Sequence record: OZ346212.1 | Direction: 5' to 3' (one strand) | Length of the DNA: 64,000 nt | Source of the DNA: a phage | Shown here: one piece after another, positions 1,521-63,955 of the stretch | How positions within the stretch are numbered: the stretch's first letter is position 1 | Layout of the letters: the number at the start of each line of letters is the position of its first letter | Program-made: the position numbers and the translations under genes | The notes under the pieces: model-generated | Database searches by the model: none | The model's input: the letters and a program-made list of their open reading frames with translations, nothing else | Told to the model about the DNA's origin: nothing

Positions 1521-3944
1521 ATGAGCATGTGGTCGTTCGACTTTGAGTCATCCGGTTTGCTGGAAGACCCAGATCTTTATTATCACTGCGGCCTGTTTAA
1601 AGAGCTGAATAAGAACCGTTTTATGCTGTTCCTTCCTCTAAATGACCGCACACACTACTCCGAGGAGGATATAGAAAAGGCTAAGAACTTCATTCTGGCA
1701 AAGAAAACTCTTTATAAAGATTTTGAAGTTCGCATAGCAGATTTTTCAGAGTTGGAAGGTTGGCTTACAGGAAATTCTGACTGGTCACCAACAGCTTTGA
1801 ACTGCCATAACTGCTACAGTTATGACTTTATGCTGATGGAAAGATTATCTGGTATTCATTTTGATATGTTCCGTGATCCTAAGTGTATGGGGACTATCAA
1901 CGATCACCAGGTTAACCTGTTTGATACGTTGGCGATGAGCCGAATCTTGTGGCCTGATCGCCCTTTACCAAAAGGTTGTCCGGACTCTGTATTCAACCCG
2001 GTTACTAAGAAAATGCAGCCTGTTGGTCCTCACGGCCTTATGGCATGGGGCTACGCCCTTGGTAACCAGAAAGTTCAAATTGATGACTGGCGCGATCTTC
2101 CGTTATGGAAGTATGTGGATCGTGTATTTGAGGACGTTATCATCCAGGAGCTGCTCTGGAAAGAGCTGGTAGCGGAATCAAAAGGTGTATTCTACGGCAA
2201 ATCTGACATGCAGAACTTTATGTACGATCCTGCCAAAGAGAAGCCGAAAGGGTTCAAGAAGATCACCTGGAAGAACGCATTACGTCGAGGCATGTTGCAG
2301 CACTTCCTGATGGAGCTGCAGGCCCGTCAGGGTGTATACTTCGACATAGATGGGGCTATTGCTTTACGTGACCGCTGCGATGCGTGGATGAAAGAGATCG
2401 CTGATCGTGTTGAACCACAACTGCCTTTAAAAGAGCTGTCAATGTCTCAGCGGCCCAAGTTCCCTGAAAAGCCGTTTAACCAAGATGGGACAATCTCTAA
2501 TAATGGTTGGAAATGGTTAAAAGATAAGCTTGGCTATCCTGTGGACATGAGTGCTTTAGAGTTCAAAGCCCCACCTAAGCGAGCATTTACCTCTACAGGA
2601 GATGTCAGTAAGATGGGGATAAAATGGTGTGAAGAGATGGGCTGCAAAGACCACGATAAGATGGCTGATTTCTTGAGAGGTTATATTAAGGGCACCTCCA
2701 CACCACAACCTTTACCTAAAGAGCTGATGGATCAGGCAATAAGCGATCTGCAACAGAAGCGAATGCCTGACTGCAAGATACCTATGAAAATCAGCAATCA
2801 GGACGACATTAAGCGATACCTGATCAGTGCTGGTTGGCTTCCGACAATGTGGAGAACTAAGGATGTAACTAAGGACAGCAAGAAGAAAGCTCTACCTGAT
2901 GCAGATGTTGATGCACGAGTATATGCATACATGGACGAGCTTTTAGAGTCAGAGTATTGTGACCTAATTATCAACTTCTGGAACAAAACTGATGCTAAGT
3001 TTCAGACAACAGTGCACAAGTTCCGAAGCTTTCCTAACTCCGAAAGGATTAAAAAGGAAGTGTTCGGGAAAATACGCAGAAAAGCCAGGGCACTTATTAC
3101 TTCTCCGCAACTGAAAGATACGTTTGGACACCTATGTCCGAATCTTGAAAAATTGAACGGAGAGATGGCTAAAGATATCGTCTTGTGGTTATCATTGCGA
3201 AACCGCAGATCGGTCCTTGATCCAATCAAGGAGGATAAGGTTGATACTGGTCTTCTTAATCACCCACGTTTGAAGATTGACCATAAGCTTCCTGCTAAAA
3301 GCTCTGGATTAACAAACACTTCCCGACAGAAACACAGTATTTGTGCAAACATGCCTAAACCATCTCCTAAAGTGGTTATGGGTAAAGAGATGCGTAGCTT
3401 GTGGGGTGTTCCTCCTGGATACTTTGAGATCGGTATTGACGGGTCCAACTTAGAGCAGCTTATCGGGGCTTGGGGTGCCTTTGAGTTCGACAACGGCTTG
3501 TACTATGATGTTGTAAGTAACGGGGACGCACACCAAAACAATGCTGAGGCATATACAAAAGTAGCAGGCAGAGAGGTGTCTCGTAACGACGGTAAACCTA
3601 TCACGTATGGGGTTATGTACGGGGCACAAAAAGATAAAGTTGCAGATATGCTGGATATCTCCCCAGAGTTGGGGCAAAGGGTGATCGATGCACTTTGGGA
3701 TGCCAACCCAGGTCTTAAGGGGCGCAAAGAGGATCTGGAGAAATTCTGGGAAGCAACAGGTAAGAAGTTTATCTACTCTTTTGATGGTCATGCTATCTGG
3801 ACCCGATCTAAACACTCTTTACTTAATGCATACCAACAAAATGGCGGCGCATCGTTGTGTGACTTAGTTGGGATACTCATGCACCATCAAATGGTGAAGC
3901 GTGGGTGGTACGATGAAGGTGTTCGTCGTATTATCTATTACCAT
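1521..3944 (+). CDS. DNA polymerase family A, exon 1
   Basis: RBS AAGGAG before ATG 1521; Exo I FDFESSG; motif B KPITYGVMYGAQ; ORF ends at the His that should start motif C (HDE). Confidence 0.85.
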
Positions 3945-4786
3945 AAATAACATTGTGGCTTCGTGCAGTGATGCACGTCGAAAACCTCTTTAATTGACGG
4001 GAAGGCTAAGTTGACTTTTACACCTAAACATGGTAAAAGCTCAATATGCTAATCCGCAGCGAAGACTAAAGGGGTGTAGTTAAAATGGCTAGATCAGTTG
4101 AGTATCACGGATATACCGTGTTTGATGATGGAACAATACCTTTATCGAAACGTGATCATACAACAATGTTTTGTTTTGATAATGGTCGAGGTTACCTTTG
4201 CGTAACCATGTTCATCGAGGGGAAGCAGTGCACAAAAGGTGTCCACCACTTGGTTGCTGAATGCTTTGTATCAAACCCTGATCCTGAAAGGCTCACATGG
4301 GTGAACCATAAGGACGGAAACAAATACAACAATGCATACTGGAACCTTGAATGGACCACCCCTGGTGGAAATATCAAACACGCTTATGATAATGACCTCA
4401 GAGTAAGGCCAGTCGGTGAGTATAATGCCAACGCTGTACTGACCGAGGATGAGGTAACGGAGATTTGCGAACTGTTACAAAGTGGTTTACGACAATGCGA
4501 GATTAGGGATCTTGGGTATCCTTATGAGACGGTCAGAGCCATAAAGCAAAGAAGACAGTGGAAACATATCTCTAAAAACTACACCTGGTAGTAACGTTCA
4601 GAGACTATCGAAAGCATAGCGCCAACATAAATTGGTGCGAAGAAGCGAGTAGAGTAGACCAGCAAGTGCGGTCGAAATGGGAGGTGCCTTGGTAACAAGG
4701 TAGTGAGATAGTCCGATCCATACAGGAAACTGTATGGCTGTGCACGTAATGGTGCGGGGTAGCTTAACGACCTACCTGAACTATTG
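3945..4786 (+). mobile_element. group I intron interrupting DNA polymerase motif C
   Basis: Exon 1 ends in T3944, intron ends in G4786; P/Q/R/S-like elements at 3994, 4051-4060 (AATCCGCAGC), 4596-4610 (GTTCAGAGACTATCG), 4705-4714 (GAGATAGTCC); contains HNH ORF. Confidence 0.7.
4085..4591 (+). CDS. HNH homing endonuclease (intron-encoded)
   Basis: RBS AAAGGGG; HNH signature NHKDGNKYNNAYWNLEW; located inside intron. Confidence 0.8.
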   Translation: MARSVEYHGYTVFDDGTIPLSKRDHTTMFCFDNGRGYLCVTMFIEGKQCTKGVHHLVAECFVSNPDPERLTWVNHKDGNKYNNAYWNLEWTTPGGNIKHAYDNDLRVRPVGEYNANAVLTEDEVTEICELLQSGLRQCEIRDLGYPYETVRAIKQRRQWKHISKNYTW

Positions 4787-5140
4787 GATGAGTACCAACT
4801 TCAAGTCCCTGACACACCGAAGTATAAGACTGTGTACACCTTCGACACAATCGAAGAACTGGAAGCATTTAAGGCAGAGCAGGAGGCCAAACTTCATGTG
4901 TTCGACGGTCATAAGTACAAAAAGGCACGCAAGGATGAGGACGGAAACGAAGTGGTTGACAGAGACGGAAACACGGTGTACGATCCTATCCTGAACGATG
5001 ACGGAAAGCTTGAACTTATCTGGAGCCCTGTGGGTGAAATGGTGGTGCATTGCTTCTGGCAAGCTTCTAAAATGATGGGCGTCCCGTTCCAGATCACGGG
5101 TGAATACCTGTGTGGTCGTAATTGGGGTGATTGTCACTAA
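4787..5140 (+). CDS. DNA polymerase family A, exon 2
   Basis: Begins with DE completing motif C (IIYYH|DEYQLQV); C-terminus GRNWGDCH matches Pol I / T7 pol ends. Confidence 0.75.
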   Translation, partial: DEYQLQVPDTPKYKTVYTFDTIEELEAFKAEQEAKLHVFDGHKYKKARKDEDGNEVVDRDGNTVYDPILNDDGKLELIWSPVGEMVVHCFWQASKMMGVPFQITGEYLCGRNWGDCH

Positions 5141-47807: not shown

Positions 47808-48266
47808 TTAGAAGTTTGTTTTTACACGTCCCTTTTCATCAACCTCGTTGTTGGCTAGAAGCGTTACAAAGTCTGTGAAACGGACATGAAGAACTCTTTT
47901 CTTATCAAGGTATCCTAAAGCCACCCCTGAGAAATTTAGCATCAAAGGGGCTAAAGAAGCTCTGGCACTGAAATGCTGTTGTTCTACCCTTCCAACACCC
48001 TTAGTGTAGGATGGGTTAAGATTGTAAGTTCTGAATCCCAGTTTTGTTGGAGCTTTAGAATTAAAAACAACTTTATAGCGTTTCTTACTCAACTTATGCT
48101 CCAGGATAAGCATTCCCTTATCACCCTTGATAAGTTGAAAATCTGTAAAGTGCTCTTTTAATACGAAAGGTAGTGCCAGTCCCATCGCCTGCCCCCTTTG
48201 TACCGCTGTCTCACCAAAAGCTTTTGCATCAGTAAGTTCTTTGGTCAAGTCTATGCTTTTGATCAT
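47808..48266 (-). CDS. hypothetical protein; possible 2H-phosphoesterase fold
   Basis: Two H-x-T/S motifs (EHFTDF near residue 39, QHFSAR near residue 98); weak. Confidence 0.5.
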   Translation of the reverse strand: MIKSIDLTKELTDAKAFGETAVQRGQAMGLALPFVLKEHFTDFQLIKGDKGMLILEHKLSKKRYKVVFNSKAPTKLGFRTYNLNPSYTKGVGRVEQQHFSARASLAPLMLNFSGVALGYLDKKRVLHVRFTDFVTLLANNEVDEKGRVKTNF

Positions 48267-49047
48267 ACCTAGTCTCCAAAATGTATTGTAGTTCTTTCTT
48301 ACCTATACTCTTCATTCCGGCAGTCTTACCTGCTTCTTCTTGAAAAGAAGAATAGCATTCAGCAAACACTCTGTCAACACCGTCAACTAAAGATTTTATG
48401 AAATATGTTGATTCTTCAGATTTTGGGTCATCCTCCCCCAATACTTTTCCAGCATTATACCCAACACGTCTTACACAGAAGTCGTAGTCATCTGGAGTGC
48501 TAAAAGAAAATAACTTATTCTCCCCAATCTCTACAGGATCCCTGTTGCACGCCTTTTTCTCCCAAATTTGGAAAACACACGGCACGTCATAAGGTTTGCC
48601 ATTAAGTAGAAACGAGTTCTTAGGGCACCTTTCACTGTAGACAAGGTGCATCGACATGTCCAGTTTGTTTGCAAAAAATATTTTTTCAAATGTCCGTGGC
48701 AAGATGAAGGCTATAGCCCCTCCAAGCTCTAGCAATGATGCACAATGGTTAAAGAATTTGCAAGCTAAAGATGAATTCTTGCCAAATGGTGGGTTACCTA
48801 TGAAGACATCTGCCTTGGGATGCACCTCCAAGAAGTTTGCCTGAATGCACGGTGTTGGTCCTTCAAATTCAGGATCTGGTACTAGATCGTAAGACAGTAT
48901 CTCTGAAAATAGTTTTGAAAAAGAACCCCTTCCAGCAGAAGGCTCAACGTATGCACAATTTCCATACTTATCTTTTACTTTACCAACAAGATATTCTGCA
49001 TACTCAGGGTTTGTGTAATATTTGTCGTTGGACTCTTTCTTGCTCAA
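48229..49047 (-). CDS. DNA N6-adenine methyltransferase
   Basis: Motif I VEPSAGRGSF, motif IV FIGNPPFG; TTG start after RBS GGAGG. Confidence 0.7.
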   Translation of the reverse strand: MSKKESNDKYYTNPEYAEYLVGKVKDKYGNCAYVEPSAGRGSFSKLFSEILSYDLVPDPEFEGPTPCIQANFLEVHPKADVFIGNPPFGKNSSLACKFFNHCASLLELGGAIAFILPRTFEKIFFANKLDMSMHLVYSERCPKNSFLLNGKPYDVPCVFQIWEKKACNRDPVEIGENKLFSFSTPDDYDFCVRRVGYNAGKVLGEDDPKSEESTYFIKSLVDGVDRVFAECYSSFQEEAGKTAGMKSIGKKELQYILETRYDQKHRLDQRTY

Positions 49048-49056
49048 AGTGCCTCC

Positions 49057-49084
49057 AAAAGGAAAAGGGAGGCGCAAGCCTCCC
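49057..49084 (-). terminator. intrinsic terminator (minus strand)
   Basis: GGGAGGC-loop-GCCTCCC followed on minus strand by TTTTCCTTTT. Confidence 0.55.
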
Positions 49085-49093
49085 TATACTTGA

Positions 49094-50083
49094 TTAGATT
49101 ATCTGAATCAGGGTGTTTTTCATTTCTTCTCTGGTACGGATGTTGTTACGGTCACGAACAACAGATCCACAACCTTCGCAGCGATATGTTTTAAATGCAC
49201 TCAGTTGAGTATACGCCAAAGCTTCTTCCTCGTGAAGGTGTTCTCCACCGCAGCGTGGGCAACGAACTTTTGGCTCCTCATCCTGGTAGTACAATGACAT
49301 ATTGGGGTGCTGCTTAGCAAACGGGCGTGCCAGCAAATACAGGCCTTCCAGAGATAGGATATCACCAACATTGTACTCCCGCATCTGTTTAAACGCCTCA
49401 AGATCACCATGAACACACTTGATCCACATTTCAAATGTGTGGTCAATCAGTTTCTGTCGGGCAAGTTGGAAGTATTTGCATGCATACTCCAAAGTGTTTG
49501 CATTCAAACGGAATGCCTTCTTGATCATTTTAAGGGTGTCAACCTCTTTGTATGGGCTTGTTGGAGGCAACCCGTGAAATGCAAATCGTTGGTTTGCCCA
49601 CCCACAGTCAAAACCTGAATTGTGGGCTACTGCGACATCACATTTATCCAGATAATACCACAAGTCCTGAATCAATTCGAGGTCATTGTGAATATCCTCA
49701 TCCCACATTTTGTAATCGGGAAGAGCGCAGTCAACCACACTAGGACTGTCTAACCACTTACCTGCGAAAGTTAGCATATAGGGCATAATTTCAATACCGC
49801 AGGTTTGAATGTTGGTCTTATAGTGCCCAAAGAACCAGCCGTTTGTTGGTGATGTTTCTGTATCATACACCCAAACTTTAGCTCCTTTGTGTTCTTCAAG
49901 GAAGCGCTCAGTTGCTTCTCCTACAATCTCTGACATATTCTCTTGTGCACGTTTAAGCTGTAGTCGGATCCAACTCTCACGTGACTCACGGCCTAAAAAT
50001 TCACGAGCAATTTGTCTATTAGTGTATCCCTGCTGCTTTAGTGTTAAAATTTGCTCAAGAGTTAACTTTGTCATCATCGTCAA
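49094..50083 (-). CDS. DEDD-type 3'-5' exonuclease with N-terminal HTH and C-terminal zinc ribbon
   Basis: Exo I VYDTETS; Exo III VAHNSGFD; CPRCGG...CEGCG. Confidence 0.7.
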   Translation of the reverse strand: MTMMTKLTLEQILTLKQQGYTNRQIAREFLGRESRESWIRLQLKRAQENMSEIVGEATERFLEEHKGAKVWVYDTETSPTNGWFFGHYKTNIQTCGIEIMPYMLTFAGKWLDSPSVVDCALPDYKMWDEDIHNDLELIQDLWYYLDKCDVAVAHNSGFDCGWANQRFAFHGLPPTSPYKEVDTLKMIKKAFRLNANTLEYACKYFQLARQKLIDHTFEMWIKCVHGDLEAFKQMREYNVGDILSLEGLYLLARPFAKQHPNMSLYYQDEEPKVRCPRCGGEHLHEEEALAYTQLSAFKTYRCEGCGSVVRDRNNIRTREEMKNTLIQII

Positions 50084-50089
50084 AATTCC

Positions 50090-50311
50090 TTAGTAAAACT
50101 GAAGAATGTCTTTTAAAGCGAAGTCACGATATTCGCCCTTGTCTACATCAAAGGCATGCATCAACCACTGCTCTTCTTTATGATACTCTGTAGAGCCAAA
50201 CCATAAATTAGGCTCAGTAACGCAGCGATCTGCAACAACACCTTTCCAGTTACGGTATTTCATCCTGATCAGGACTGAGTCGCAAGGATTGAATACCTTT
50301 TTCATCCCCAT
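50090..50311 (-). CDS. hypothetical protein
   Basis: ORF track. Confidence 0.4.
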   Translation of the reverse strand: MGMKKVFNPCDSVLIRMKYRNWKGVVADRCVTEPNLWFGSTEYHKEEQWLMHAFDVDKGEYRDFALKDILQFY

Positions 50312-50855
50312 AGAAATCTCTCTCCTCAGTTTTCTTTATAAACTCCTGCATGTAGGACTCAATAGCCTCATGCTTGGTGCACTCTGGATTAATGACAAGA
50401 TTGAGATCTGATTCTGCTCGTGCAATAATCGTAGCTTTAGAGCATCTCCTCAAGAACTTTGTCATATCATCTCTGTAGTTTTTGTGGAGCGGGAAGTCGC
50501 TGTAGTCTTTCTCCAGATAGTCAGCCATCCGGCGCAACGCCTCTGATAAACTGCAATCTGTATACTCGTTACAGTATTTCATCCAGTATTTAAGCACATA
50601 CCCCTCAAAGGTATTAGTGCACTGAGACAAAACACCCCTGCAACGACCAGTCAGATGATCATGATCTAAACAAGGCTTACGAAGTGGCTCGCACAAGATC
50701 GGATCAAGACCATCCTGCTCCTCTGACAATTCTTTTCGAAAGTTGGCTATGTCCTTAGAATCTTTTAGCCACCCGCTATGAACGGGGGCTTTGACAGCTT
50801 TCTTTCTTATTTTACGCTTTGCGATAACCCCTCCAGATGCGCCCTGCCTATCCAA
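50250..50855 (-). CDS. HNH endonuclease (free-standing)
   Basis: CLDHDHLTGRCRGVLSQCTN; overlaps both neighbours, start uncertain. Confidence 0.6.
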   Translation of the reverse strand: MDRQGASGGVIAKRKIRKKAVKAPVHSGWLKDSKDIANFRKELSEEQDGLDPILCEPLRKPCLDHDHLTGRCRGVLSQCTNTFEGYVLKYWMKYCNEYTDCSLSEALRRMADYLEKDYSDFPLHKNYRDDMTKFLRRCSKATIIARAESDLNLVINPECTKHEAIESYMQEFIKKTEERDFYGDEKGIQSLRLSPDQDEIP

Positions 50856-51436
50856 TAAGCATCTGCGAGATCGGCCTTACCTTGTACCAAATTGATCCCA
50901 TCTAGGAACCCAGGTTCAGATACTTCGCAGGCCTTAACCATCAACTTTTTATCCATCGTAACAGGTTTCTTCACAGTATGCTCTTTACCTGTCTTTTTGT
51001 CAAGCTTTTTCTTCTCCTCAAAAGCAAGTTCCTCAGGAAGATGACTACGAGCAAACTTTTTGGCAGTTGTTGGTGTCACAGTGTGGACCTTAAACAGGCC
51101 GTCATTTTCACAATCAGCTAAAGCATCCCAAAGCATAACTTCAAGACCGTAAAACAACCCAGCCAGTTCGCGTGTGGCATCCCCGCGTGATCCAAAGGAA
51201 AGCCCTTCCATAACCACGGTGTCAACGCCGTGCGTGTGGATGTAATATCTGACCTGTTTGCAGATCCAGTCAATACGCTCAGCAGCTGTTGCAAAAGAAA
51301 CCGTCCCTGGTTTCTTCTCTTTTGCAGATGAGCTTTGAGTTCGTAACACAACCTTATGAACAGGCTTTCCATCGTCCCATACAACGCAAGCTGTGTGTGT
51401 CAACGACTGGTCTATGGATAATAGACGCTCTCTCAT
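50807..51436 (-). CDS. RuvC-like Holliday junction resolvase
   Basis: LSIDQSLTHTACVV (cf. RuvC GIDPG), VVMEG, DLADAYWIG. Confidence 0.65.
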   Translation of the reverse strand: MRERLLSIDQSLTHTACVVWDDGKPVHKVVLRTQSSSAKEKKPGTVSFATAAERIDWICKQVRYYIHTHGVDTVVMEGLSFGSRGDATRELAGLFYGLEVMLWDALADCENDGLFKVHTVTPTTAKKFARSHLPEELAFEEKKKLDKKTGKEHTVKKPVTMDKKLMVKACEVSEPGFLDGINLVQGKADLADAYWIGRAHLEGLSQSVK

Positions 51437-51765
51437 GCTTCCTCGTCCTCCTCTCCTTCATCAGGAGCATAAGCCTTATCTTTGAACAAGACGAGAGAGC
51501 AAAGCTTAACATCTGTTTCCACACTGGTGAACATGCATAACCGCTCGCCCTCAATCAGCTCACAATCCTCTTTTAAAACAGCAGACCATACACGGTCATC
51601 TGCGTAATCATCCGTGTACAGGATGTATGAAATGGTGTCATCTTCATACAACCGCCACATACCTGTGGCAACAACGAATGTATTTTTTGTTTTAAGTGTC
51701 CCTGTTGTGTGATCATCCTCAAAAACAGCTTCCATAATTGCGTTATCTACAGCATTTTTAGTCAT
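51433..51765 (-). CDS. hypothetical protein
   Basis: ORF track. Confidence 0.5.
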   Translation of the reverse strand: MTKNAVDNAIMEAVFEDDHTTGTLKTKNTFVVATGMWRLYEDDTISYILYTDDYADDRVWSAVLKEDCELIEGERLCMFTSVETDVKLCSLVLFKDKAYAPDEGEEDEEA

Positions 51766-52904
51766 CAGATTGCTCCAACATTTCTAAGAACGTTAACAAG
51801 TTTTGTCTGGTCATTAAATGTCCGCTTCATATACAAACAGTCAAAAATTATACTCATCCATTGACCTACGGAAATTCTACGATCAATACCATTGAAGTCA
51901 GTATACTTAACAACACCTTTCGGGAACCACTTCTTGTACTGATCAATAATAGCCACCCACATCTCCTTTGGAGTGCTGCACTGAGACAGTAGGTAGAATG
52001 CTGAGGCATCCCCGAACTTACCCTTACCGATAAGTCCTTGATACGGCTTGATGTTGTCAGCAGAGTCACCACACAGCATTTGGTATCCGAAGAACAGCAT
52101 CCCGTAACCGCCAACCTCTCCATTGGGCTTCATGAAGATGTTCCCCATACCGTTATCGATCAGCATAGGGGTTTCCCTTACAAAATCTCCCTTATCGTTT
52201 CGCATGGGATCGAACACAAGCCCCGGTAGTGTTCTTTGGTCCTTATCAATAGAGATAATAAACTTGTTGAACTTACCTGTTTTTTGGTAGTGGTTCCAAC
52301 CTTCAAATTGCTGGATAGCTAACCAGTCGTCAGCCTCGATACCGTTGATCACTTGAGCATTATACTGCTTTTGGAGATACTGTCTTGCATCTCCAAGCAG
52401 CAGTGGTCGAAGAGTATTGTTACGGTTGGCTTTATATCTTTCCGGCATGGGAAGATCTAGTCTGAAATTACCTGTGCCTCCAAGTACCCCCACGCACCGA
52501 TCTTCCGGAATACCGAGATAATTAAGGACTGCATTAGCTTTACACTTAATTGTGTGCAAGCAGTTCTCTACAGGATCAGGGGTTTGGATATCCAAGACAT
52601 CGAAATCTTCTCGTGTCCACGGAATAAACTCCTTGCCAGCCTTTTTACATGCAGCTTCACGGTTGGTATTCTCAGCTTTTAACCAACCACCAACGGTGTT
52701 CTTCTGCCGCCCCCAGAACTCTGTTCGTGTTTTAAACATCTTCTTACGTCCGGAGGCTTTGTGTGTTACCTCAATTGTCCTTTTTTCACAACTTGCTGCA
52801 GCTTGATATGCAACCTGATCGAAGTCATAATAAACTATAGCGTCAGGTTCAAGAAGATCAGCCAGACAATCTATGGACTCAATAAGTGGATATTCTCTAC
52901 TCAA
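51765..52904 (-). CDS. 5'-3' exonuclease / flap endonuclease
   Basis: GIEADDWLA and LCGDSADNIKPYQGLIGKGK match the Pol I 5'-nuclease / T4 RNase H family. Confidence 0.7.
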   Translation of the reverse strand: MSREYPLIESIDCLADLLEPDAIVYYDFDQVAYQAAASCEKRTIEVTHKASGRKKMFKTRTEFWGRQKNTVGGWLKAENTNREAACKKAGKEFIPWTREDFDVLDIQTPDPVENCLHTIKCKANAVLNYLGIPEDRCVGVLGGTGNFRLDLPMPERYKANRNNTLRPLLLGDARQYLQKQYNAQVINGIEADDWLAIQQFEGWNHYQKTGKFNKFIISIDKDQRTLPGLVFDPMRNDKGDFVRETPMLIDNGMGNIFMKPNGEVGGYGMLFFGYQMLCGDSADNIKPYQGLIGKGKFGDASAFYLLSQCSTPKEMWVAIIDQYKKWFPKGVVKYTDFNGIDRRISVGQWMSIIFDCLYMKRTFNDQTKLVNVLRNVGAI

Positions 52905-63584: not shown

Positions 63585-63659
63585 GCCCTGTTAGCTTAGT
63601 GGATAAAGCAGCGGCCTTCTAAGCCGTTGACACTGGTTCGAGTCCAGTACGGGGTGCCA
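63585..63659 (+). tRNA. tRNA-Arg (anticodon TCT)
   Basis: Cloverleaf folded by hand: acceptor GCCCTGT/ACGGGGT, D-stem GCTT/AAGC, anticodon loop CTTCTAA, T-loop TTCGAGT, encoded CCA. Confidence 0.8.
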
Positions 63660-63663
63660 AATT

Positions 63664-63750
63664 GGGGAGTTATCCCGTAGAGGTAGCGGTGTAGACTGTA
63701 AATCTATTGTCATTGCGACTCGGGTGGTTCGACTCCACCACTCCCCACCA
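63664..63750 (+). tRNA. tRNA-Tyr (anticodon GTA)
   Basis: Acceptor GGGGAGT/ACTCCCC, anticodon loop CTGTAAA, long variable arm, T-loop TTCGACT, encoded CCA. Confidence 0.8.
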
Positions 63751-63864
63751 AATTTATATTTTTAGATGCATAAATAATACAGATAATGGCATTGATATTT
63801 ATCGTCGTTTATACTAGTCACTAACTGCTCGAAAATCAGTGTCATTATCAGTATTATTTATAAA

Positions 63865-63955
63865 GGAGGGTAGGGAGCAATGGTGCTCAATCGGTCTTGA
63901 AAACCGTCCCGTTGAGGATGACTCGATGATGGTTCGATTCCATTACTCTCCGCCA
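63865..63955 (+). tRNA. tRNA-Ser (anticodon TGA)
   Basis: Acceptor GGAGGGT/ACTCTCC, anticodon loop CTTGAAA, long variable arm, T-loop TTCGATT, encoded CCA. Confidence 0.7.

Follow-up and report, generated by a model that had tools for sequence, protein, structure and literature searches.

A stand-alone DEDDy-type 3'-5' exonuclease with a predicted helix-turn-helix head and zinc ribbon in an rV5-like phage of E. coli and its possible role in DNA 3'-end trimming

The exonuclease described here is a stand-alone member of the DEDD superfamily and, by prediction from its motifs and modelled fold, a catalytically competent, metal-dependent 3'-to-5' enzyme of the DEDDy subclass. It is encoded in a 64,000-nucleotide stretch of phage DNA (sequence record OZ346212.1; the window hereafter). 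The conserved unit of its family is the exonuclease core together with a Cys4 ribbon, to which an optional and variable head, predicted to be of the helix-turn-helix (HTH) type, is added at the N terminus. It is independent of the exonuclease domain of the phage's own DNA polymerase. Judged by fold, conservation, and gene neighbours, chances appear even that it serves as an accessory exonuclease trimming DNA 3' ends within the replication-recombination module of the phage. The features discussed are compiled in Table 1.

Table 1. Position of the exonuclease gene, its parts, and related genes in the window.
Feature	Coordinates	Strand	Basis
Exonuclease CDS, 327 aa	49094..50077	minus	ORF list, deposited CDS boundaries, PHROG 403 match
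HTH-type predicted DNA-binding head, residues ~5-48	49934..50065	minus	modelled helices, weak HTH matches
Acidic low-confidence linker, residues ~49-64	49886..49933	minus	pLDDT, alignment occupancy
DEDDy 3'-5' exonuclease domain, RNase H-like fold (modelled), residues ~65-256	49310..49885	minus	AlphaFold, Foldseek, Pfam matches of relatives
Exo I VYDTETS, residues 70-76 (D72, E74)	49850..49870	minus	sequence and conservation
Exo II VAHNSGFD, residues 150-157 (N153, D157)	49607..49630	minus	aligns with VIHNAAFD of E. coli epsilon
Exo III YNVGD (Y235, D239)	49361..49375	minus	conservation; defines the DEDDy subclass
Predicted Cys4 zinc ribbon, C-terminal, residues ~268-310	49148..49276	minus	cysteine conservation, modelled strands
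Endonuclease VII-type junction-resolving nuclease	50250..50855	minus	Endonuclease_7 E=1.4e-7, phrog_423 E=2.9e-37
RuvC-like Holliday junction resolvase or RNase H-like protein	50807..51436	minus	phrog_159 E=3.3e-39
FEN-type 5'-exonuclease	51765..52904	minus	phrog_107 'exonuclease' E=6.3e-71; annotated 'putative 5'-exonuclease'
T7 gp5-like family-A DNA polymerase (PolA)	1521..3944 + 4787..5140	plus	phrog_17 E=1.3e-90, T7 gp5 PDB match 9.5e-15
Insertion with HNH ORF, probable group I intron	3945..4786	interrupts PolA	mapped against CarlMeissner, Rfam Intron_gpI E=3e-8

The ORF represents a genuine gene, and its phage is an rV5-like one infecting E. coli. Phages of the rV5-like Vequintavirus group are 99.9% identical to the window, and a 100% identical exonuclease protein is found in phages slur16 and MaxBurger. 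Of two possible start codons, the ATG at 50077 is favoured on sequence grounds; it is the start used in the records of near-identical phages (CarlMeissner bas48_0199, pangalan_121), and an AAGGA Shine-Dalgarno-like sequence lies 9 nt before it. The same sequence is only 3 nt before the TTG at 50083, the less likely start, which would extend the protein to 329 aa. In rV5-like records, the exact protein carries the label 'DnaQ-like 3'-5' exonuclease' or 'DNA polymerase/exonuclease'. Hence, the exonuclease is already known, its identical sequence being deposited and annotated and its family being a named PHROG.

All three motifs of the DEDDy subclass are present, namely Exo I as D-x-E, Exo II as N-x2-3-(F/Y)-D, and Exo III as Y-x3-D. 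In an alignment of 158 family representatives of at most 50% mutual identity, D72, E74, Y235, and D239 are each conserved in 99% of the sequences, D157 in 100%, and N153 in 97%; D72, E74, Y235, and D239 are invariant in alignments A1 and A2. The catalytic DEDD residues are, thus, retained on alignment, and with conservation of 99-100% for these and 98-99% for the cysteines of the ribbon, the motifs lie far beyond chance. Exo III is Y-x3-D and not H-x4-D, and the enzyme is therefore DEDDy and not DEDDh as in DnaQ/epsilon. This corrects the sequence-only reading, from which the strings VYDTETS, VAHNSGFD, LKQQGYTNRQIAREF, and two CxxC motifs can all be found in the ORF: VYDTETS is indeed Exo I, but VAHNSGFD, which had been taken for Exo III, is Exo II and follows the pattern h-x-h-N-x2-F-D. 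The stand-alone DEDD exonuclease that it proposed is borne out by the match to PHROG 403, the conserved catalytic residues, and the AlphaFold fold. Its term 'DnaQ-like' is appropriate for the superfamily but not for DnaQ proper, as the dnaQ equivalog models fail (NF004316 with 26.8 bits versus 196, TIGR01406 with 23.0 versus 222.7).

General profiles place the protein less sharply. For PF00929 (RNase_T), the exonuclease scores 21.7 bits versus a cut-off of 24, and the match is confined to the Exo II region (residues 137-211 in the numbering of the 329-aa form). PF13482 (RNase_H_2) is absent from the 18 Pfam families that the exonuclease matches at E<=1 in hmmscan. Relatives at 25-47% identity carry precomputed matches to PF13482 and also to PF00929 and PF10108. 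Since these relatives match PF13482 and the exonuclease itself does not, its kinship with that family is transitive only.

The fold was predicted by AlphaFold. A first prediction with 8 sequences (pLDDT 60.6) was too poor for use, and the model considered herein was obtained with 88 sequences (mean pLDDT 80.1). Its exonuclease core, with block-mean pLDDT values mostly of 77-98 and a lowest value of 71, is predicted to adopt an RNase H-like alpha/beta fold. The best Foldseek matches are the exonuclease domains of the KOD, 9N, Tgo, and Pfu PolB enzymes, of Pol epsilon, and of Pol III epsilon. T7 gp5 and the exonuclease domain of DinG are matched as well, and RNase T stands at rank 50. The PDB yields 41 structural matches at E<=1e-3, and those listed are all exonuclease-containing polymerases, epsilon, the DinG exonuclease, or a DnaQ domain. 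Among viral structures, the LKA1 protein is matched best (E=1e-23). A profile search of the PDB returned remote matches only and no solved structure of a close relative. The DEDDy fold alone cannot tell DNA from RNA substrates, RNase D and Rrp6 also being DEDDy enzymes.

The core is flanked by two smaller elements. At the N terminus, which contains LKQQGYTNRQIAREF at residues 13-27 (nt 49997..50041, minus strand), the model shows helices 7-15, 20-28, and 31-48, with block-mean pLDDT values of 85-90 over residues 11-40. In isolation, this segment gives weak Pfam matches, with scores under the gathering cut-off, to HTH_38 (E=0.003) and HTH_7 (E=0.009). When the heads of 41 family members are considered, HTH_38 is matched by 9 and HTH_23 by 6 of them (best E=3.6e-6), one head matches Myb (E=1.2e-8), and the top 25 families displayed in the tally are all DNA-binding or transposase/terminase-type helical families, mostly HTH, Myb, or homeodomain-like. 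The head is shorter than 20 aa in 24 of the 158 representatives. It is, thus, predicted from sequence and model to be an optional DNA-binding HTH whose type varies between family members. The subsequent linker has pLDDT <50 over residues 48-64 and an alignment occupancy of 0.57-0.59. At the C terminus, C273 and C276 of CPRC (residues 273-276) and C300 and C303 of CEGC (residues 300-303) are conserved in 98-99% of the 158 representatives, and the model contains the beta strands 281-289, 294-300, and 306-308. Zinc-ribbon families in Pfam are matched many times, but weakly and always below threshold (E about 2e-3). The zinc-ribbon and HTH domains named from the letters alone have, hence, fared differently: the ribbon is supported by its conserved cysteines, and the head is backed less directly by weak Pfam matches, modelled helices, and the family tally.

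The polymerase of the phage was compared by alignment of its N terminus with those of T7 gp5 and of four further PolA enzymes from phages. The N-terminal domain has no Pfam match and no significant PDB match and was identified via tblastn to phage polymerases and the alignment with T7 gene 5. In it, FDFES is retained as Exo I, HNCYSYD as Exo II, and, from Exo III, the aspartate (..FEDVII), in agreement with the earlier statement that the polymerase has an exonuclease motif of its own. Where T7 gp5 has its Exo III tyrosine, all five non-T7 polymerases compared (rV5-like, ICP1, RIO-1, S2 lineage) have arginine. That the exonuclease of PolA is dead and needs a proofreader in trans was rejected, as D, E, D, and D are kept and the Tyr-to-Arg exchange is common to these five polymerases. 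An origin by recent duplication of the exonuclease domain of PolA was likewise rejected, as BLASTP of the exonuclease against PolA gave no similarity.

The family to which the exonuclease belongs is large. The match to PHROG 403 is full-length, with E=1.4e-110 and 370 bits, and places residues 4-328 of the 329-aa ORF on positions 2-320 of the 321-position profile. The family comprises 4,722 clusters at 50% identity, and tblastn detects it in 1,527 of 50,697 phage records (about 3%); T4-like phages are not among the organisms listed for these matches. The literature on the rV5/Vequintavirus exonuclease, the 'DNA polymerase exonuclease subunit', ICP1 gp189, and the phiKMV-group exonuclease yielded no functional study, and for no verified family member was a biochemical or genetic characterisation found in the literature. 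Mycobacteriophage Girr gp37 is probably the cluster F orthologue, judged by size and position. It is moderately toxic when overexpressed (PMC11075535), which is the only phenotype found in the literature for a putative family member.

On the minus strand of the window, the gene order is FEN-type 5'-exonuclease, a 110-aa ORF, RuvC-like protein, endonuclease VII, a 73-aa ORF, the exonuclease, and a methyltransferase-like ORF; further downstream of the exonuclease follow a P-loop NTPase, ThyA, and RNR. The PolA gene is about 45 kb away. Comparable neighbours recur in other lineages, in which a recombination protein is encoded no more than about two genes away. In Luutsna-6 (Autographiviridae), endonuclease VII lies directly upstream of the family member and is itself preceded by an RNaseH-annotated (FEN-type) gene; in f20-Xaj, a 128-aa unclassified 'endonuclease' lies directly upstream; and in one metagenomic locus (L009), endonuclease VII is found about 1.3 kb upstream. 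The phrog_190 Holliday junction resolvase (DUF1064, endonuclease-I-like) lies within about two genes in Cellulophaga phage Calle_1 and three further loci (L026, L058, L065). Near other family members are encoded NinG (marine siphovirus-like loci L007 and L008), a Sak-like annealing protein (L062), and a UvsX-like recombinase (mycobacteriophage Lilac). A tally of 10 non-redundant IMG/VR loci gives mostly primase/helicase, polymerase, resolvase, and exonuclease families, and the upstream ORF of the metagenomic family members has no assigned function in 4 of 10; the IMG/VR loci, 13 after removal of redundancy, stem mostly from one marine subclade and are a limited and biased sample of contexts. 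The neighbourhood pattern has exceptions: no recombination neighbour was seen beside the family member of crAss cr108_1, Asterion, or Flavobacterium phage sniff9-1, and in Che8 the gene sits after the lysis cassette. Since replication modules are compact, adjacency to resolvases is partly expected by chance. The stretches covered around Che8 gp37 (12.7 kb), in L007 (21 kb out of 38.7 kb of contig), and in L005 showed no gene for a polymerase.

For an accessory 3'-end trimmer, a mechanism can be outlined in which we infer the DNA substrate, the trimming of 3' ends, the link to recombination, and the ligands of ribbon and head. The optional and swappable HTH head would tether the exonuclease to DNA, and the flexible acidic linker would join it to the core, while the constant Cys4 ribbon would most likely grip single-stranded DNA or a partner protein. 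The enzyme could then trim ends that carry a 3' tail, a 3' flap, or a 3' mispair, such as would arise in recombination-dependent replication and in the processing of concatemers. Its partners would be the products of genes immediately upstream, namely a FEN-type 5'-exonuclease, a RuvC-like protein, and an endonuclease VII. A more far-reaching version is put forward only tentatively: that this DNA-tethered trimmer of 3' ends and flaps, with an invariant core of exonuclease and zinc ribbon and with interchangeable HTH or Myb heads that read sequence, is a dedicated and as yet unrecognised recombination or replication-restart factor in >1,500 phages, which together with resolvases makes branched intermediates packageable and is not a polymerase subunit. 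It is suggested by the recurrence of the gene beside the non-homologous endonuclease VII, RuvC-like, NinG, DUF1064/endonuclease-I-like, Sak-like, and UvsX-like proteins. DnaQ-like 3'-5' nucleases do occur in lambdoid recombination modules according to a 2025 paper, which lends independent support; however, 3'-5' exonucleases usually inhibit and do not promote homologous recombination, which counts against such a role (PMC12315714).

The family name suggests a proofreading subunit acting in trans, with the exonuclease docking onto PolA or, where the phage has no polymerase, onto host Pol III and editing 3' misincorporations. Fold and DEDDy chemistry are those of polymerase proofreading domains, and in the polymerase profile phrog_17 the stand-alone enzyme matches positions 645-843 (E=1.8e-9), where the exonuclease region lies. 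The exonuclease domain of the RIO-1 PolA is annotated as PF13482, as are relatives of the exonuclease, a PolA gene is often only a few kb away, and the zinc ribbon could serve for docking. The Exo III arginine of the rV5-like, ICP1, RIO-1, and S2 polymerases might also be taken as a deficit; yet this exchange is lineage-wide in the five non-T7 polymerases and cannot yet be linked to the presence of the stand-alone enzyme, and PolA, which keeps all four acidic exonuclease residues, leaves no deficit to fill. Polymerases adjoining family members elsewhere have N-terminal room for, or matches to, an exonuclease domain. The distance between the two genes in the window, the failed dnaQ models and DEDDy signature, and the stretches without a visible polymerase gene, which argue against an obligate link, make this role unlikely. 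Because PolA retains its own D-E-D-D set and carriers exist for which no polymerase was seen in the stretches examined, the database label 'polymerase subunit' is unsupported for the family. An equally improbable function is the degradation of host DNA with salvage, whereby the cut host chromosome is digested to dNMPs for reuse, with T4 DexA or T7 gp6 as analogues. The P-loop NTPase, ThyA, and RNR genes of the window fit this, as do virulent carriers with nucleotide-metabolism neighbours (ThyA and NrdA in ICP1; ThyX, PhoH, and RNR in IME180; RNR in P3_CHA). The toxicity of Girr gp37, a probable orthologue by size and position, is consistent with an attack on host DNA but is non-specific for nucleases. 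The family also occurs in temperate Che8, with integrase and immunity repressor nearby, and in a small siphovirus-like contig with ERF, DnaB-like, and NinG genes, and phages of these kinds do not usually destroy host DNA early. Hence, this role, which had been suggested from the sequence, is not supported; the variable head and the conserved ribbon rather suggest targeted than bulk breakdown.

RNA has also been considered as the substrate, in 3'-end processing or turnover for the maturation of phage tRNAs or the decay of host transcripts. Some DEDDy enzymes act on RNA, RNase D among them; the phage of the window encodes tRNAs (63585..63955), tRNA genes lie about 1.5 kb upstream of the copy in Lilac, and RNase T appears among the structural matches. 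These points are outweighed by the best structural matches, which are all proofreading domains of DNA polymerases, and by gene neighbours that are enzymes of DNA replication and recombination. HTH heads typically bind double-stranded DNA, Pfam and NCBIfam gave no RNA-processing family match beyond the generic PF00929, and phiKMV-type Autographiviridae, which carry the gene, are not typically known to encode tRNAs. The RNA-processing role offered by the sequence-only reading, thus, finds no support and is very unlikely. A nuclease for counter-defence would destroy an immune product or signal of the host, such as reverse-transcriptase cDNA, retron msDNA, or oligonucleotide messengers. Family members occur widely, as accessory genes, in phages that are unrelated, their heads vary, and PADLOC gives weak matches to a Cas-associated DEDDh model (E=3.7e-6) and PDC-S48 (E=0.0018). 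These matches cover only the generic Exo II region, however, and the gene resides in core replication/recombination modules and not in early or anti-defence clusters. Whereas anti-defence genes typically evolve fast, the core shows very strong conservation from host to host, and support in the literature was not found, which leaves this explanation highly improbable. Membership of the exonuclease in a defence system was rejected, the PADLOC matches being weak and partial.

By itself, the finding of an exonuclease is correct but largely ordinary and adds little. The analysis corrects the class, which is DEDDy of the polymerase-proofreading type and not epsilon-type DEDDh. It also gives no support from context for two widely propagated names, 'DNA polymerase exonuclease subunit' and the alternative 'DNA polymerase III subunit'. 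The lead lies in the recurrence of the gene beside unrelated junction-resolving or annealing proteins. Few uncharacterised phage proteins of DNA metabolism are as widespread as this family, and thousands of genes would be re-annotated by a single biochemical study.

Compared with known systems, the exonuclease differs in nothing structural from PHROG 403 ('DNA polymerase exonuclease subunit'), which is the same family and whose names imply a role as polymerase subunit. T4 DexA is a functional analogue, being a stand-alone phage 3'-5' DNA exonuclease of the DEDD superfamily that is accessory to replication. It is DEDDh, has neither HTH nor zinc ribbon, and is not detectably related to the exonuclease by the sequence comparisons made here. 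MrfB (YprB) of Bacillus subtilis, the founder of PF13482, is a stand-alone 3'-5' exonuclease of DNA repair (PMC11194089), and JGI calls relatives of the exonuclease 'YprB with RNaseH-like and TPR domain'. However, MrfB belongs to the DEDDh enzymes, contains a TPR domain, and is partnered by the MrfA helicase, whereas the phage enzyme has an HTH and a zinc ribbon, both predicted, and no TPR. E. coli DnaQ (epsilon) belongs to the same superfamily, with an Exo II region that aligns with the exonuclease (E=0.007) and a structural match to 2ido; it is DEDDh with H-x4-D, as opposed to the DEDDy Y-x3-D of the phage enzyme, in which an epsilon-like C-terminal alpha-binding tail is not evident and the predicted zinc ribbon stands in its place. 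The proofreading domains of KOD, Pfu, and Tgo PolB, Pol epsilon, and T7 gp5 have the same RNase H-like fold as the modelled exonuclease (Foldseek E about 1e-5, TMq about 0.42), those of PolB and T7-type PolA share its DEDDy set of DxE, NxxxFD, and YxxxD, and the exonuclease region of Pfu-type PolB is reached from it by profile-level sequence matches. Compared with all of these domains, the stand-alone exonuclease is unfused and carries, in addition to the common core, a predicted HTH head and Cys4 zinc ribbon.

The stand-alone exonuclease gene of this rV5-like E. coli myovirus very probably encodes an active, metal-dependent DEDDy 3'-5' exonuclease fitted with an HTH-type head and a Cys4 ribbon. 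Close and distant homologues invariably share D72 and E74 of Exo I, N153 and D157 of Exo II, and Y235 and D239 of Exo III. When the top 158 family representatives are aligned with MAFFT, the five catalytic residues D72, E74, D157, Y235, and D239 are conserved to 99–100%, so that the DEDD set expected by the sequence-only reading is present. Since Exo III reads YNVGD, the protein falls in the DEDDy subclass, to which polymerase proofreading domains belong, rather than in DEDDh with DnaQ/epsilon. All strings quoted in that reading occur in the protein; VAHNSGFD, assigned therein to Exo III, is Exo II, being the counterpart of VIHNAAFD of E. coli epsilon in the alignment. The HMM search it had proposed gave a full-length match to PHROG 403 ("DNA polymerase exonuclease subunit"; E=1.4e-110). 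Curated models matched weakly: Pfam RNase_T at 21.7 bits (cut-off 24), dnaQ equivalog models at 23–27 bits (cut-offs near 200), many zinc-ribbon Pfam families at E about 2e-3, and HTH_38 and HTH_7 at E 0.03–0.09.

The AlphaFold model, built from 88 sequences, has a mean pLDDT of 80.1. It consists of a confident N-terminal helical head, a disordered linker (residues 48–64), an exonuclease core with block means mostly of 77–98, and a three-stranded ribbon followed by a C-terminal helix. Foldseek matches in the PDB cover the core only (E from near 1e-5, TMq about 0.42) and include the exonuclease domains of KOD, 9N, Tgo, and Pfu PolB and of Pol epsilon, as well as Pol III epsilon, the S. aureus DinG exonuclease domain, the Streptococcus thermophilus DnaQ domain, T7 gp5, and RNase T. 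No solved structure with the exonuclease-plus-ribbon architecture was found in the PDB, where the family profile gave remote sequence matches only. The best match in a viral predicted-structure library is the "YprB RNase H-like" protein of phage LKA1 (E=1e-23).

Among 1.84 billion representative proteins searched with a profile, 4,722 clusters matched at E <=1e-3 and 1,800 at E <=1e-30. Among the 158 representatives, the ribbon cysteines C273, C276, C300, and C303 are conserved to 98–99%. Occupancy of the first ~60 residues is merely 57–82%, and 24 proteins have <20 residues ahead of the core. The N-terminal extensions of 41 members, scanned one by one against Pfam, gave, among the matches listed, hits to DNA-binding helical domains, mostly of HTH, Myb, or homeodomain type (HTH_38 in nine, HTH_23 in six, HTH_7 and Sleeping-Beauty HTH in three each, Myb in one), with best E about 4e-6 to 1e-8 and a class that varies from member to member. 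Hence, exonuclease and Cys4 ribbon together form the conserved unit, to which the HTH is an optional, swappable head. The ribbon may not always bind zinc, since in a large marine subclade serine or some other residue stands at C276 and C303, where each CxxC pair has its second cysteine, and one member (L019:9854-10759) has a ribbon-like segment at the N terminus instead of the HTH.

The ~4 kb around the gene share 99.9% identity with the Vequintavirus phages HdK5, pangalan, and CarlMeissner of Escherichia, and slur16 and MaxBurger encode a 100% identical protein. Existing annotations read "DnaQ-like 3'-5' exonuclease" (bas48_0199) and "putative DNA polymerase/exonuclease" (pangalan_121); novelty is low, since gene and family are already known and annotated. 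An AAGGA Shine-Dalgarno-like sequence lies 9 nt ahead of the ATG and just 3 nt ahead of the TTG, which makes the ATG the better-placed start. Window positions 48000..52000 are also matched by 20 records that bear the name "Campylobacter phage," 18 of which give Campylobacter jejuni as host, and the protein of one of them, A141, is 99.4% identical; either this host assignment is doubtful, it seems, or propagation or contamination with coliphage took place.

Features of the window discussed in the text
Feature	Coordinates	Strand	Remark
Exonuclease ORF	49094..50083	minus	TTG start, 329 aa (ORF list)
Exonuclease CDS in deposited records	49094..50077	minus	ATG at 50077, 327 aa
Nuclease island upstream of exonuclease	50090..52904	minus	compact, overlapping, co-oriented
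FEN-type 5'-exonuclease	51765..52904	minus	first in island
110-aa ORF		minus	between FEN-type and RuvC-like genes
RuvC-like protein	50807..51436	minus	
Endonuclease VII	50250..50855	minus	
73-aa ORF		minus	between endonuclease VII and exonuclease
"Putative N6-adenine methyltransferase" (pangalan)	48229..49077	minus	NPPF motif (FIGNPPFG)
"Putative N6-adenine methyltransferase" (pangalan)	47808..48266	minus	overlaps preceding ORF
PolA gene	1521..5140	plus	interrupted
PolA coding parts	1521..3944 + 4787..5140	plus	T7-gp5-like family-A polymerase
PolA N-terminal exonuclease domain	1521..2300		
PolA insertion	3945..4786		842 bp
HNH homing-endonuclease ORF	4085..4591		inside insertion
Rfam group I intron model match	3935..4736		full length
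tRNA genes Arg-tct, Tyr-gta, Ser-tga	63585..63955	plus	cluster of three

The exonuclease gene closes a nuclease island of uniform orientation, in which the endonuclease VII ORF overlaps its neighbors by about 50–60 nt, suggesting translational coupling. Next comes an N6-adenine-methyltransferase-like ORF, and farther downstream are the genes for a P-loop NTPase, ThyA, and RNR. The larger methyltransferase-like ORF best matches phrog_5172, a family of unknown function; together with the ORF overlapping it, it could form a split or two-part methyltransferase.

A recombination neighborhood recurs across lineages, which is suggestive only. The rV5 order, with a FEN-type gene upstream, the exonuclease, and then ThyA and/or RNR, is also found in ICP1 and P3_CHA. 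Within the Autographiviridae, Luutsna-6 has an RNaseH-annotated (FEN-type) gene, EndoVII, and the exonuclease in succession, and f20-Xaj an unclassified 128-aa "endonuclease" directly upstream. A phrog_190 resolvase (DUF1064/endonuclease-I-like) lies directly upstream in three marine podovirus-like contigs (L026, L058, L065), a DUF1064 protein one gene away in Cellulophaga phage Calle_1, NinG one gene away in two marine siphovirus-like loci (L007, L008), a Sak-like annealing protein adjoining in L062, a UvsX-like recombinase one gene away in mycobacteriophage Lilac, and EndoVII about 1.3 kb upstream in L009. The lineages are unrelated, and the partners are non-homologous. Primase/helicase, polymerase, resolvase, and exonuclease families dominate a PHROG tally of 102 neighbor ORFs; four of 10 metagenomic upstream ORFs have unknown function, and Che8, crAss cr108_1, Asterion, and Flavobacterium phage sniff9-1 are counter-examples. 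Just downstream of the family member, L058:10949-11866, L065:11233-12156, L026:10758-11696, and Calle_1 (L101:6697-7599) encode another stand-alone DEDD exonuclease (PF10108/PF13482), which is distantly related and lacks the ribbon family signature; such genomes would hold up to three exonuclease domains, the polymerase's own included.

For the role of the protein, chances are about even that DNA 3' ends are its substrate and that it serves the replication-recombination module as an accessory enzyme. In that capacity it would work beside FEN and the junction resolvases and trim 3' tails, flaps, or mispairs. A 2025 study reports DnaQ-like 3'-5' nucleases from lambdoid recombination modules and comments that nucleases of this kind usually inhibit recombination (PMC12315714). 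That the enzyme is a nuclease separate from the polymerase, as the sequence-only reading held, stands, and the roles it proposed found no positive evidence: degradation of host DNA, considered here together with nucleotide salvage, is improbable, and RNA processing is very improbable, although the phage does carry tRNAs. Counter-defence is about as improbable as RNA processing, the PADLOC matches being weak throughout.

A proofreader acting in trans is likewise unlikely. PolA does have an exonuclease motif of its own: aligned with T7 gene 5 and four other phage polymerases, it keeps Exo I (FDFES), Exo II (HNCYSYD), and the Exo III aspartate. The T7 Exo III tyrosine (DYNVQD) is replaced by arginine (DRVFED and similar) in all five non-T7 polymerases compared (rV5-like, ICP1, RIO-1, Seunavirus, Erwinia S2), in which all four acidic residues are kept; with this as the sole change, the exonuclease of PolA looks intact. 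The first 260 residues of PolA have homologues in the N termini of ICP1, RIO-1, Erwinia phage S2, and pelagiphage PolA, and no pairwise similarity between PolA and the stand-alone protein was found. Polymerases near family members elsewhere have N-terminal regions large enough to hold an exonuclease domain; one of them matches such a domain weakly. No polymerase gene was seen in 12.7 kb around the family member Che8 gp37 of a temperate mycobacteriophage, which directly follows the lysis cassette, in 21 kb of the 38.7-kb contig L007, which carries ERF, DnaB-like, and NinG genes, or in the stretch examined at locus L005. The database name of the family thus overstates what is known.

The PolA insertion lies exactly within catalytic motif C (..IIYYH|DEYQL..), and its Rfam group I intron match scores 39.1 bits (gathering score 50; E=3e-8). 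The CarlMeissner gene is uninterrupted (926 aa). As the rV5 paper (PMC3606486) lists a polymerase of 775 aa and places introns nowhere but in the terminase gene, polymerase introns may be under-annotated in the rV5 group.

That paper does not discuss the exonuclease gene, and no functional study of the family was found in the literature. Girr gp37, a 273-aa cluster F1 "DnaQ-like exonuclease," is moderately cytotoxic when overexpressed (PMC11075535); it matches Che8 gp37 in size and position and is on that basis a putative member. The outcome is a sharper description: a DEDDy enzyme with a constant exonuclease-plus-ribbon core and a variable HTH head. Its distant relatives carry the Pfam domains PF13482, PF00929, and PF10108. 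MrfB, the characterized founder of PF13482, is a DEDDh enzyme with a TPR domain (PMC11194089), whereas the present family is DEDDy; hence, the two are related but distinct.
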